The position numbers were made by a program. Below are positions 36,001 through 42,000 of a stretch of 64,000 nucleotides of DNA, piece after piece; the first letter of the stretch is position 1; every line of letters begins with the position of its first letter. The DNA comes from Escherichia coli O127:H6 str. E2348/69 (lineage in GTDB: Bacteria; Pseudomonadota; Gammaproteobacteria; Enterobacterales; Enterobacteriaceae): the NCBI RefSeq assembly GCF_000026545.1, contig NC_011601.1. One strand, 5' to 3'.

Positions 36001-39000
36001 TTCTGTAATTTCCCGTTGGCCTTCGGTCAGCCAGTTTTCTGCCAGTACGCCCAGCACTTCGCTACCATCGGCAAGTTTGATTTTGCCAATTGCCAGCCCA
36101 GCGGGTTCGCTCATTAACAGAGCGGCAAAACTGGCCAGCGGTAATTGCCAAATTTCTACGTCGACGTGTGTTCCTCCTTCATTCACGCGAATCATTCCCG
36201 GATGGCGATCATTAATACTCCACAACCGGTAATGGGCGTCAGTTCGGTCTTCACGGACAAAAATACCGCCCGCTTTTTGCATATTTGGGTTGAGTTCCAG
36301 GCCGCGCATCAGCGTTCCGTTAACGGCTAAAAGCGTTGTAGTCATTGTGTTCTCCAGAGAATTAAAGGGTTATCCATGTACCGCTCTGATGCGCCAGGGC
36401 TGCTTTTATGGTTTGCGGTGAAGTAATCAGGCCGCTGGCCTGTTTGCCTTGTTGCTGGCTGGCATTGATGAAATCAACAATGGCTTCCACTTTGGGTTGC
36501 ATACTGCCGACACCAAACTGACCTTCCCGCAACAGCGTTTGCGCTTCGGCAACGCTGATAGCGTCGAGCCACTGTTGTTGTGGTGTACCAAAGTTAATCG
36601 CCACTTTTTCTACACCGGTGGGGATCACCAGCAGATCTGCGCCTAATTGACTGGCGAGCAGCGCGGAGGCCAGATCTTTATCGATCACGGCTTCTACACC
36701 TTTCAGTTGTTGCCCGTCTCGCACCACCGGAATACCGCCGCCGCCGCAGGCAATAACCAGATATCCCTGGCGCACCAGGTGAGCGATGGTGTCGTGCTCA
36801 ATAATTTCCAGTGGTGCAGGAGAGGGAACTGTACGCCGCCAACCACGCCCGGCGTCCTCCATCAGCGTCCAGCCGAGTTGTTGTTGGCGTTGTTGGGCCG
36901 TTGCTTCATCGAGAAACGCGCCAATTGGTTTACTGGGGCTGGCGAAAGCATCGTCATGTGGGCTGACTCGCGTTTGTGTCACCAGGGCAATTACCGGTTT
37001 GTTTATGCCACGGCGAGCCAATTCGTTATGCAGCGCTTTCTGGAACATGTAGCCAATTGCACCTTGTGTATCACCCACGGCGTAATCAAGTGGAACCGGA
37101 GAAACTTCGTTACTGGCGAGTTCAGAGCGGCGCAGAATAAAGCCCACCTGCGGGCCATTACCGTGGGTTAGTACCAGGTCCCATCCGGCTTCAACCATAT
37201 CAACGATATGTTGCACGCTTTCCATCACTGCAACATATTGATCGGGAATACTATTGCGTTGCTCGTCCTGAATGAGCGCATTGCCGCCAACCGCGACGAC
37301 AGCCAGTGGCTTAACCATGATGGTTCTCCTTTGCGACGATCTCCGCCAGTGCACGTACAGCGGCGACAAAACAGGCCATCGGCGCAGTGGTGATCCCGGC
37401 ACCAATTTGCCCGACCCCCGCTTGTTTGTGGGCGATACCCGTATTGATGACCGGTAAAATGCCGCGATCGGTCACTTTACGCGCATCAATCCCTGCTGCG
37501 GTCTGTCTCTTATACACAAATCCCCACCCGGGGATTTGTGATGTCTGTCAGTCTGCTTTAGGGGGACTCTTTCCATCCGGTAGTTTCCTTCCTCCCCGGC
37601 AGCGATTTTTTGAACTTTTTCCTCACCCGTTGATCTTCTCTTATATTTCATTTTCTTCGGGTCTGTTATGGTACTTTCTGATTGTTATTCATGGGCTAAC
37701 GAGCAGTTTGGACATGCCCGTCTCGGTGATCCGCGTCGTACACGACGCCTTGTGTCACTGGCCTCTTCTCTCGCTCAGCATGCAGGTCTTTCTATTGTGA
37801 AATCATCCCAGTCCACTGCTCAGGTTGAAGGTGCGTACCGCCTGATACGTAACCCGTCTGTGTCCCCGCAAGCCATTGCCGAAGCCGGATTTACCGCCAC
37901 TGTAAGGGCATGTGAGGCTCATCCGCTGCTCCTCGCGCTGGAAGACACCACCACCATTAACTTCAGTCACAGTACGGCATCTGATGACCTGGGGAATACC
38001 ACCACTAACCCGAAGACGCGCGGGCTGCTGGCTCACTCTGTCCTGATGTACGCCCCCGACAGCGCCCTGCCAGTCGGTCTTATCGAACAGCAGCGCTGGA
38101 GTCGTGCCACGGACACCTACGGTGTTAAGCACCAGCGAAAAGAACGTCCCTATGAAGAAAAAGAAAGTTACCGCTGGCAGCAGGCTTCGGAGCGCATGGC
38201 CGAATGGCTGGGGGAGATACAGAAACGGGTAATCACTGTCTGTGACCGGGAAGCGGATATCTGGCATTACCTGCATTATAAAGTCAGCCACGGGCAGCGC
38301 TTCGTGGTGCGTGCAGCACAGAATCGCCGGCTGGAAGAAGCACCCGGCAAGCTCTTCGAACTGCCGGAAGTCCTGGCAACCGCGGGAAGCCACACGCTGA
38401 ATGTGATGCAAAAAGGCGGGCGGGCAGCCCGCCAGGCCCGGATGTTCATCAGTTACAGCGAAGTCAGCATAAAAAATCCCGACAACAGCGGCCAGGCGCT
38501 CCCGCTCACGTATGTCTGTTGCCGGGAGCAGGCAGAGGACGGCGCCTGCTGGCATCTGCTGACGTCAGAAAAAGTGGCGAGTGCCGCCGATGCGCGACGT
38601 ATCGTCAGCCATTACGAGCGACGCTGGCTGATAGAGGAATACCACAAGGCGTGGAAAAGTGGTGGTACATGTGTGGAATCGCTGCGAATGCAGACCCGGG
38701 ATAACCTCGAGCGCATGGTGGTTATCAAGGCGTTTATCGCGGTGCGGGTGCTGGGCCTGCGGCAGGGCGGTATCAGTGAAGAAACACAAAATGACAGCTG
38801 TGAGAAAATACTGACGCCGACAGAGTGGAAACTGCTGTGGGTTAAGCTGGAAGGAAAACCGCTTCCGTCACAGATGCCGACACTGAAATGGGCCTGTCTG
38901 AAACTGGCGAAACTGGGGCGATGGCATGACAGCAAACGCACCGGTCGCCCCGGTTGGGTAGTCATGTGGGATGGCTGGTTCAGACTTCAGGATATGGTTG

Positions 39001-42000
39001 AGGGTTACCTGGTGATGAAGTCTCTTGATCAGGAGATCTGATCAAGAGACAGGCTGCGGTGGGGGCAAAATTGAGGGCTGGAAGTGTAAATGCGGGGTTA
39101 CCGCCGAGGGTGATTGCTTGCATCCGACGGCTGTTATTGGTGGCATCGGCAGGGGTGCCTCCCACAAATTTGACGATCGCCGGAGACGACGCCATCGCGA
39201 AGCCACCCACACCTGCGGTTTCAGTAATTGCGCTATCACCCAGGTCAGCAGCAGCGTCGTCAACGCCAAATCCGGGGAAGAACAGACCTTCAACGGCATT
39301 GGCAGGAGCCTGGAACCAGCGATCGCCAGTACCGGAAAGCCGAATACCAAAATTCACCCCGTTACGCGCCATCACCGTAACCATTGAACTGAACGGTACA
39401 TTGGCGGCGGCATCCATCATTGCTTTACAGGCGGCCATCGACAGATTGAGGAAGAAGTGATCGTTACCGGTGATAAATGCCACGACGCGCTGGATATGTT
39501 CCTGTGGAAGAGAGCAGGCCAGCAATGCCGGGAGCAGGCGCTTAATCAGCAAACCGGTAGCGGCAGCATTGCGGTTATGAACTTCATCCCCCATATGCAG
39601 CGCCTGCGCCATTAATGGCTTGAGTTCCAGCTCGCCGTGTTGTGCGATTGCTGCTTTCATTGCCGGCGTCAGTTCATCGCGCATCCAGGCCAGACGATTG
39701 AGAACTTCATCGTTATTGGCGCCAAAACGGAGAACCTTACCCAGACCTTCATTGAAATTGCTAAAAGTACGGTGGCCGTTGGTTTTGTTTTCTACCACCC
39801 ATAACGGCATCGACGGGCTGATGATGCCTGCCATTGGGCCAACCGCGTGATAATGATGACAAGGGGCAAGGTCGATTTCGCCTGCGTTTATTTGGTTTTC
39901 AGCGTCTTGCTGGCTGGTGGCCCAACCTTCGTACAGCATGGCACCAATAATCGCCCCTTTTACCGGACCACACATCTCTTCCCAGGCAATCGGCGGGCCA
40001 GAGTGCAAAATACGTTTTTGTTCAGCCATTGCTGGAATGGCCTCTTTAGCGAGCATGACATCCACCAGCACGGGTTGTGCTTCGAGATAACGTGTCATGG
40101 CGATTTGGTTGGCATTTTCTACCAGGGGATGACGTAGCAACGATGCCAGATCCAATCCAGCGTCAATATCGCCTTGTGCTGGTGGCTGCCAGTTGAGTGC
40201 AATTGCGCTTCCCCCGGCATGTTGAATATTGTCAGCAAAACTGTGTAGTCCCGCGTTCACAACCTTCAAAGGCTGATTAAATAAGGTGTTCATGCGTTTA
40301 GCCCCTTTTTCTGCAACTGAGTCTGCGCAACGGCGCTGGCCCATAGCGCCGCCTGTGCATTGCTGCTGGCAATGATGATGCCCGCATTTTGTAGTGCGCT
40401 TATCTGCTGACTGCGTATTTGCGGATCAGCTTCCGTTCCGCAAACGTGCGCAATCAGCAACGGAGCGTTATTCATGTCGATGTGTGAAAGTTGGTCCAGT
40501 AATTCGCTGGCAGGCGTCGTGGAAGCGCCATAACCAAGTACCAGGTCGAATAACACGACGGCAGTGTGTGAGTCGTTGAGTTCGTTGAGCAGACGTTGAT
40601 TGCGCAGAGTCGGGTCGATCATTGGATGCGGTTTGCCACGGGTGAAATCATCGTCGCCCATATCGATCAACGTGTGATCTTCGCTTTGCCAGATATTTGC
40701 CAGAGCACGATTACCCGCAACTGGCGTATTGGAAGCTGCGCTGAATCCCTTTTGTTGGCAGATAAGTTGCGCTTCGTAGCAGAAGGTTCCTCCGGCGAAA
40801 ACACCGCGTATCGCCTGGCGATGGGCTGGCAGACGCTGGCAGGCGTTTTGTAACATTGTGAGATCGTCGCAGGAAATCTCGGTCTCGACAGCCGGAATTG
40901 GCTGATCATTCAGTAACGCTACGGCGATATTTGCGGCGCTGGCAAGTGTGGTGGCCGCGGTGATATTGGGACGTGCCAGATCATGCGGATTCGCACCGAG
41001 GAAATTCACCACCACGGGTTTTCCACAAGCCTCGGCGCGCTCCAGAATAGTCTGGGCAACGATCGGTGAAGGCGGTTTTGAAATCAGCACAATCACGCGA
41101 GTTTCATCGTCTTGCGCCAGCGCATCTAAAGCGAAGAGCATCGATATTCCACCAATCTCTTCACTGAGATCATGTCCGCCTGTTCCCAACGCCTGAGAAA
41201 TACCCGCTCCGAGCTGGTCGATTCGGCAAGTCACTTCCTGTAGCCCGGTGCCTGACGCGCCAATAACACCAATTGCTCCGCGTTTCACCACATTAGCGAA
41301 GCCTAACGGAATGCCGTTAACAATGGCGGTTCCACAGTCAGGTCCCATTACGATGCGCTGACGTTCTCGGGCAAGCGTTTTGATAGATTTTTCCTGCCCG
41401 ATACTGACGTTATCGCTGAACATTATCACGTTCATTCCGAGGTTTAACGCTTTCATTGCTTCGGCGGCGGCGTAGTCTCCCGGTACAGAAATGAGTGCCA
41501 GGTTGGCCTCGGGTTCGGCTTCCAGTGCCATTTCCAGGCTGACCTTTTCCGGTGTTTTAATGCCACTATCCGTTTCATCATCGGGTTTGCTGGTCAGACG
41601 TTGCTGGGCCAGTACCAGTGCTTCATTGCAAATATCTTCTTCACCCATGACTGCAATCACTAAATCATTGGGACTGGCGTTGATTTCGTTACCCAGACCC
41701 GCATCGCGCAATTGTTCGAGATTATTGGGCGTTCCCATGACGACCGAGGCCTGTTGAATACCGGGCAACTTGCTGATTTGCGCGGAAATCTGCATCAGAG
41801 AAACTGAGTCCTGATAAAGATTACTGAAAACTTTATATTTAACTTTCATGCTGTTACGCCTGTTTCATTCCGCCCGATAGCAAAATTCGGGCAAAGCATC
41901 CCCGTGTAGCCCCATAAACGGGCTACGGGAGAAAAGGTTGAAATCAATTCATGGTGTTCAGGGTTCGAAAGCCATGCAGCATTCCTGCAAGGCAATCTAC

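Follow-up and report, generated by a model that had tools for sequence, protein, structure and literature searches.

Our analysis identified the element at 37503–39052 as the already catalogued ISEc13, a distant Tn5 relative, and the best overall explanation, to which we assign a probability of about 0.95, is that, in the lineage leading to E. coli O127:H6 E2348/69, a copy of it jumped into an AllG-family gene of 474 codons, at codon 414. This insertion shortens the AllG-like protein, is likely to be polar on the genes behind it, and probably leaves the nitrogen-catabolism module inactive. As an event, the insertion of ISEc13 in this gene is ordinary and already on record in public annotation. 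The positions of the features within the window, i.e., the whole 64-kb stretch of DNA analysed, are collected in Table 1.

Table 1. Features of ISEc13, its insertion site and the surrounding operon.
Feature	Coordinates	Strand	Evidence or remark
ISEc13, 1550 bp, IS4-family element, IS50 type	37503..39052	+	100% identity to RefSeq-annotated copies
Left terminal sequence CTGTCTCTTATACACAAAT, 17/19 match to IS50 outside end CTGACTCTTATACACAAGT	37503..37521	+	
Right terminal sequence CTGTCTCTTGATCAGATCT, identical to IS50 inside end	39034..39052	-	
Subterminal hairpin CACAAATCCCC-ACCC-GGGGATTTGTG, perfect 11-bp arms	37515..37540	+	
Perfect 13-bp inverted repeat, takes in most of right end	39020..39050	.	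Folds at -23 kcal/mol
Target-site duplication, left copy GCTGCGGT	37495..37502	.	Abuts element; single copy at empty site L002
Target-site duplication, right copy GCTGCGGT	39053..39060	.	Abuts element
Transposase gene, 457 aa	37668..39041	+	Pfam, NCBIfam, alignment to Tn5 transposase
Hairpin resembling a terminator, with TTTTT, within the IS on the strand from which the operon is transcribed	38405..38433	-	Folds at -17 kcal/mol
N-terminal fragment of AllG-family (DUF1116/YlbE-like) gene, codons 1-413 + 2 nt	39053..40293	-	Pfam AllG 329 bits
C-terminal fragment of AllG-family gene, last 61 codons + stop	37311..37502	-	RefSeq pseudogene piece
arcC carbamate kinase	36362..37318	-	Profile matches, RefSeq
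Stand-alone protein with allophanate-hydrolase C-terminal (AH_C) domain	35956..36345	-	"GGCT-like" gene of the original prediction
Permease, cytosine/purine family	34707..35930	-	Profile match, RefSeq
FdrA-like acyl-CoA synthetase, upstream in operon	40290..41849	-	Profile matches, RefSeq
AllH-family (DUF2877) protein	41944..42804	-	Profile match, RefSeq
Cysteine hydrolase, isochorismatase family	42810..43478	-	Best NCBIfam match biuret amidohydrolase, below cutoff

E. coli O127:H6 E2348/69 has ISEc13 copies, labelled "IS4-like element ISEc13 family transposase" in RefSeq, that match the whole 1550 bp at 100% identity, ends and 457-aa transposase included; the name ISEc13 rests on this RefSeq/PGAP annotation. 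A record derived from E2348/69 was also identical to the window across the 19.5 kb compared. The original prediction had described an IS50-like element with near-canonical ends, and this was borne out, with 17 of 19 positions matching the outside end on the left and an exact inside end on the right. The outside-end sequence used here is that given in Tn5 papers (PMC3347997, PMC2566895). In the 64-kb window, each terminal sequence had a single occurrence, where chance would give 0.01. Both ends started with CTGTCTCTT, which fits the 5'-NT start (here CT) of terminal inverted repeats that serves as a criterion for the IS4 family in PMC2266710. At the right end, the stop codon of the transposase lay inside the terminal sequence, and three GATC sites were found within the last 30 bp.

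The transposase aligned over its full length with that of Tn5 (E=7e-83), with 42% identity across 436 aligned positions, in keeping with the earlier description of it as only moderately Tn5-like. Residues D93, D193 and E323 were aligned with the catalytic DDE of Tn5 (D97, D188 and E326), and Y316/R319/E323/K330 with its YREK motif. The element thus has a single transposase gene whose product shows the DDE triad and Y-2-R-3-E-6-K, the features defining the IS4 family according to PMC2266710. Pfam Tnp_DNA_bind and DDE_Tnp_1 scored above their cutoffs, Dimer_Tnp_Tn5 reached 24.1 against a cutoff of 26.7, and the NCBIfam model transpos_IS4_3 matched with 511 bits. IS50 itself would have a transposase near-identical to that of Tn5, and at 42% identity ISEc13 is related to IS50 but distinct from it. 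The domain order, the DDE and YREK residues, the stop codon within the right end and the GATC sites there are shared with IS50/Tn5; in contrast, ISEc13 lacks a methionine at the position where the Tn5 inhibitor starts, and it has hairpins just inside both ends.

Next to the element, deletion of the IS together with one copy of the repeat gave a single open frame of 474 codons on the minus strand, reading ...LNFAPTAAGIDARKV... across the join, as had been claimed for the gene under the name DUF1116, the former Pfam name of the AllG family. The disrupted gene belongs to the family (Pfam PF06545, 329 bits, cutoff 27), and the 474-aa gene is annotated as intact in other strains. The RefSeq annotation already includes the transposase and lists both AllG-family pieces as pseudogene fragments, the N-terminal one as "missing C-terminus". 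That the element is a catalogued ISEc13 and that RefSeq records the disruption were facts that the earlier reading lacked, as were the present Pfam name AllG for DUF1116 and the departure of the 8-bp duplication from the 9 bp of IS50. In the occupied gene, the N-terminal frame reads on through 24 codons of IS sequence to a stop at 38980.

The inactivation of the AllG-family gene is an inference well supported by the sequence, as is polarity on the downstream arcC, AH_C-domain and permease genes, whose expression has most likely been stopped; with the AllG-like protein truncated and the downstream expression likely lost, the module is therefore probably inactive in E2348/69. It is also conceivable that the insertion is harmless, the truncated protein still working and the downstream genes being served by a promoter within the IS or at its border, but we regard this as unlikely. 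The Pfam-defined AllG domain (about residues 140–354) lies upstream of the break and is intact in the truncated product; however, the 61 C-terminal residues that are gone (414–474) fall mostly within the region 57–465 that was aligned to the solved homologue PDB 3clq, and both pieces are pseudogene fragments according to RefSeq. A sigma-70 promoter scan of both strands of the IS found no promoter-like site, and this crude scan could overlook an outward promoter because it missed that of the transposase as well. Against expression of the downstream genes stand about 1.5 kb of untranslated IS, whose transposase gene is antisense to the operon and which, on the operon strand, has a hairpin and then a run of T, and the position of the arcC ATG, which overlaps the AllG-like stop codon by 8 nt (ATGGTTAA) and is now cut off from upstream translation.

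The families found in this operon (FdrA, DUF1116/AllG, DUF2877/AllH and carbamate kinase) are the same as those of two sets in K-12, fdrA-ylbE-ylbF-ybcF of the allantoin branch and yahF-yahG-yahI. Unlike these, the disrupted operon is a third, accessory set, which adds a biuret-amidohydrolase-like hydrolase, the stand-alone AH_C protein and the cytosine/purine permease. In oxamate carbamoyltransferase (AllFGH), FdrA, AllG and AllH form a complex that converts oxalurate into oxamate and carbamoyl phosphate. The similarity of the disrupted operon to this enzyme is at the family level, and its gene context is unlike the allantoin cluster. A 2026 genome paper (PMC12928451) lists the set as GR 29 and gives identities of 46% (YahG) and 40% (FdrA). 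The insertion as such is of small importance: it shows that E2348/69, the reference strain for EPEC, has one accessory nitrogen-catabolism module as a pseudo-operon, which is useful to know for those who use this strain to study FdrA/AllG/AllH/carbamate-kinase gene sets.

The empty site was then sought in other E. coli genomes. It was contiguous and intact in 1553 of 5426 complete genomes, at 99–100% identity, and the exact empty junction ATCAATCCCTGCTGCGGTGGGGGCAAAATTG was present in strain FDAARGOS_536. The occupied junction was found in only three of the 5426, all of them E2348/69 or its derivatives, and the insertion is therefore specific to that lineage. The flanks were 99.9% identical to empty sites, and a further copy in the same genome matched the inserted one at 100% identity. 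These results support the view, already held in the original prediction, that the insertion is recent.

Two of the three occupied records are engineered E2348/69 derivatives, one of them described as an artificial construct, and the right end is the inside end of Tn5 as employed in vectors, a sequence that also turns up in papers on unrelated bacterial genetics, as far as the portions consulted go. These points would suit a laboratory mini-Tn5 or an assembly artefact in place of a natural insertion. We rejected this origin as highly improbable: the transposase is just 42% identical to that of Tn5, 873 genomes from human, animal and water sources have copies that span 80% or more of the element, CP059840.2, a separate assembly of strain E2348/69, shows the same junction, and the E2348/69 genomes have 27–30 copies each, with natural target duplications at their flanks. 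An old ancestral insertion, with precise excision accounting for the intact genes elsewhere, has virtually no chance of being correct, as nothing was found in its favour, and it is contradicted by the 1553 intact sites at 99–100% identity, the restriction of the IS to one strain lineage and its identity to a sister copy in the same genome.

Under the preferred reading of a recent natural insertion, homology with Tn5 suggests that the transposase, acting as a dimer, would excise the element at its 19-bp ends and insert it where the target is cut with a stagger; a stagger of 8 bp would here produce the GCTGCGGT duplication. Re-inspection of the direct repeat reported earlier as gctgcggt showed that it abuts both ends of the element and is exactly 8 bp long, with no match at 9 bp or longer. 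In 16 reconstructed ISEc13 sites, the duplication was 8 bp in 13 and 9 bp in three. The duplication of Tn5/IS50 is 9 bp and its target consensus is only weak. The 8-bp duplication of ISEc13 is a real departure from IS50 and lies near the IS4-family range (about one helical turn). Its target was likewise strict, in contrast to that of Tn5: the 16 sites gave the palindrome CCYCY-N8-VGRGG, with C at -4 and -2 and G at +2 and +4 in every one of them. The first six extra copies had been ranked by their match to the window's own flank and were a biased sample, and when the analysis was redone with 12 copies picked by an IS-only search, the same pattern was obtained. The strict motif was found once in the 62.4-kb window remaining after excision, precisely at the disrupted AllG-gene site. 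This site was probably selected because its sequence, TCCCT[GCTGCGGT]GGGGG, with a C-run and a G-run around the 8 bp, matches the preferred target of ISEc13. The motif would explain that most ISEc13 copies lie harmlessly between genes and that this one lies in a coding sequence bearing it.

The target of ISEc13 was usually the centre of a terminator-like hairpin. Highly selective insertion into intergenic GC-rich palindromes (REP) has been described for ISRm22 of the IS4 family and for ISPpu9, ISPpu10 and ISPa11 (PMC1525189), and some elements of IS4 subgroups have conserved "target arms" outside the duplication (PMC2266710). The sites of ISEc13 differ from those of the former elements in being mostly unique terminator-like hairpins that form no REP repeat family, with one site (L003) that may be REP-like. 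In the parts of these two papers that were consulted, we found no report of a palindrome or target-arm preference for the IS50 subgroup.

Relatives with the same 23-nt left end were detected in Vibrio, Shewanella, Neiella, Alishewanella and other genera; several of these marine loci (e.g., L022, L023 and L083) gave left flanks alone, neither a full-length transposase ORF nor a right end being obtained from them. In the single species compared, the transposase was about 50% identical to that of ISEc13. It is an evenly balanced question whether ISEc13 and these relatives constitute a Tn5-related clade that selects the centres of GC-stem terminator-like hairpins, in which the duplication of 8–12 bp follows the spacing of the stem arms and not a fixed stagger, and whose members bear hairpins of their own next to both ends. 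If true and not already described, this would be a natural Tn5-type transposase with strict structure- or palindrome-guided target choice. How Tn5-type transposases pick their targets could be learned from a Tn5 relative whose stagger is different and whose palindromic or terminator target is strict, and this side result could matter more than the insertion in the AllG-family gene itself. The marine relatives had the same kind of target, with duplications of 8–12 bp, and an equivalent subterminal hairpin followed by a T-run.

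Inspection of the sequence over 37300-39300 delimited an insertion sequence of 1550 bp. Among 5426 complete E. coli genomes it was matched with 100% identity in E. coli O127:H6, where RefSeq labels the copy 'IS4-like element ISEc13 family transposase'. The element begins with CTGTCTCTTATACACAAAT and terminates in the reverse complement of CTGTCTCTTGATCAGATCT; both terminal 19-mers were single-copy in the 64-kb window, against a chance expectation of 0.01. The left end matched the IS50 outside end, as found in Tn5 papers, at 17/19 positions. The 8-bp sequence GCTGCGGT flanks the element directly on both sides, and a repeat of at least 9 bp did not fit when tested at its edges. 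The right end is identical to the IS50 inside end and, as in IS50, holds GATC sites and the stop codon of the transposase gene. The encoded transposase, of 457 aa, combines an N-terminal DNA-binding domain of the Tn5 type with a DDE domain and weakly matches the Tn5 dimerisation domain (24.1 bits vs a cutoff of 26.7). It aligned over its full length with the Tn5 transposase (E=7e-83, 42% identity), with D93, D193, E323 and the YREK motif kept. The near-IS50 ends, the flanking direct repeat and the moderate likeness to Tn5 transposase claimed in the original prediction were thus all recovered.

Features of the ISEc13 insertion and its surroundings (window coordinates)
Feature	Position	Strand	Remarks
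ISEc13 element	37503-39052		1550 bp
Perfect hairpin directly inside left IS end	37515-37540		11-bp arms
Perfect hairpin directly inside right IS end	39020-39050		13-bp arms
Target site	37485-37502 + 39053-39070		TCCCT[GCTGCGGT]GGGGG
Terminator-like sites in and around the IS	38171-38588	-	operon strand
Strongest terminator-like site	38405-38433	-	hairpin with seven G-C pairs, then TTTTT
Operon	34707-43478	-	seven genes
Operon gene 1		-	cysteine hydrolase; best NCBIfam match biuret amidohydrolase, 273 bits, under the cutoff of 370
Operon gene 2		-	AllH-family (DUF2877) protein
Operon gene 3		-	FdrA-like protein
Operon gene 4		-	AllG-family (DUF1116) protein
Operon gene 5		-	carbamate kinase
Operon gene 6		-	stand-alone allophanate-hydrolase C-terminal domain
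Operon gene 7		-	permease, cytosine/purine family
Sugar-related island	28503-33524		small; adjoins the operon

When the element and one repeat copy were deleted, a single open frame (...LNFAPTAAGIDARKV...) was obtained on the - strand, and the two DUF1116 segments accordingly share one frame, as had been proposed. The window matched an E2348/69-derived chromosome, being identical across 19.5 kb, and the record of that chromosome already has two pseudogene fragments flanking the IS, one described as 'oxamate carbamoyltransferase subunit AllG family protein, missing C-terminus' and the other as 'missing N-terminus'. A 1600-bp query with both flanks joined without the IS was contiguous in 1553/5426 E. 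coli genomes, with a best identity of 99.9%, and 126 of these matches to the module were on plasmids. The expected empty site was exact in FDAARGOS_536, which has the junction with a single GCTGCGGT and an intact gene of 474 codons. In the same E. coli genome search, a query spanning the left junction gave a full match in three records only (strain E2348/69, 'E2348/69 variety 2' and an engineered derivative), indicating that the insertion is specific to the E2348/69 lineage. This restriction, and the identity of the copy to another one in the same genome, support the claim that the event was recent. The finding is real and was correctly interpreted; since the element is already catalogued as ISEc13 and the disruption already annotated in the reference strain, it is also an ordinary one. 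Copies spanning 80% or more of its length were present in 873 of the 5426 genomes, with a median of 1 and a maximum of 32 matches per positive genome, and E2348/69 had 27-30. This very uneven copy number suggests a transposition burst in the E2348/69 lineage.

Only two points merit follow-up: which targets the ISEc13 clade prefers, and how its duplication length varies. Empty sites were rebuilt for 18 further ISEc13 copies, 12 of them picked without regard to their flanks, and 16 target sites were usable, the window copy included. The duplication was 8 bp long at 13/16 sites and 9 bp at the other three, and directly outside it the consensus was CCYCY to the left and VGRGG to the right. In all 16 reconstructed sites, positions -4 and -2 were C and positions +2 and +4 were G. 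Tn5 duplications are 9 bp and the Tn5 target consensus is weak, so that ISEc13 differs from it in both respects. Most ISEc13 sites are intergenic hairpins with a GC stem, often between convergent genes (e.g. mog/satP, agp/yccJ, yehA/rcnB), and T-runs at some sites make them resemble intrinsic terminators. The target in the window conforms to the consensus, though it lies within coding sequence. After excision of the element, the strict motif occurred once in the 62.4-kb window, exactly at the insertion site, and a looser motif drawn from the other 15 sites occurred three times. Palindrome targeting is known in other insertion sequences (PMC1525189), and some IS4-subgroup elements are reported to have conserved target arms (PMC2266710). 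The papers searched gave no description of such targeting for ISEc13 or the IS50 subgroup.

The exact 23-nt left end was also found in 80 loci from about 20 species of marine Gammaproteobacteria. Among 77 distinct left flanks, an A-run occupied positions -19 to -14 (67/77 had A at -16), followed by six GC-rich bases as stem, four AT-rich bases as loop and then G and C/G adjoining the IS; AAAA fell within -30 to -9 in 60/77 flanks vs 33/385 background stretches. Eight right flanks were available, each paired with a left flank, and the duplications of these pairs measured 8, 8, 8, 9, 9, 10, 11 and 12 bp. A-runs on one side and T-runs on the other were frequent, as in AAAGCCG[CCTTTTAGG]CGGCTTTTT. 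The flanking arms were complementary or nearly so in 7/8 pairs, the pair L100/L099 pairing only partly; duplication length in the marine elements thus seems to follow the hairpin. The two loci of that pair, from Alishewanella jeotgali, are two copies with swapped flanks, and on plasmid pMAR2 (L011 and L008) one ISEc13 copy lacked the target duplication. Both cases suggest recombination between IS copies, with rearrangements. The transposases of the Alishewanella element and ISEc13 share about 50% identity. Directly inside the 19-bp end, the marine left ends carry a hairpin followed by a T-run, which looks like an inward-facing terminator; in ISEc13 the hairpin is kept, whereas the T-run is degenerate. 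Such a hairpin might keep transcripts from reading through into the transposase gene, and might take the place of a terminator destroyed by the insertion. Terminator-like sequences have been reported in a preprint as enriched adjoining and inside insertion sequences generally (10.1101/2025.07.22.666184).

The break point lies within codon 414/474 of the AllG-like gene, and the truncated frame adds 24 IS codons before a stop. The lost tail falls largely inside residues 57-465, the part aligning to the sole solved homologue, 3clq, so the fold of the truncated protein is probably incomplete. The carbamate kinase start overlaps the AllG-like stop by 8 nt, suggesting translational coupling of the two genes. 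The transposase gene runs antisense to the operon, and the five terminator-like sites detected in and around the IS, vs 2.0 expected, all lie on the operon strand. Judged from these sequence features, polarity on the downstream genes and loss of module function are likely. The module is accessory region GR 29 of a 2026 genome paper, which puts identity to YahG at 46% and to FdrA at 40% (PMC12928451). An earlier paper had suggested that the missing oxamate carbamoyltransferase might be found among the FdrA, DUF1116 and DUF2877 families (PMC3364942). The combination of genes in this operon, a third set beside those of YahG and FdrA, hints that its substrate is a ureide or a biuret-like compound other than oxalurate. 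On the operon strand there follows a gene for a LysR-type regulator, which may or may not be part of the operon. The adjoining sugar-related island contains hxlB (6-phospho-3-hexuloisomerase), a second ptsG-type PTS transporter, a transketolase and an RpiR-family regulator.
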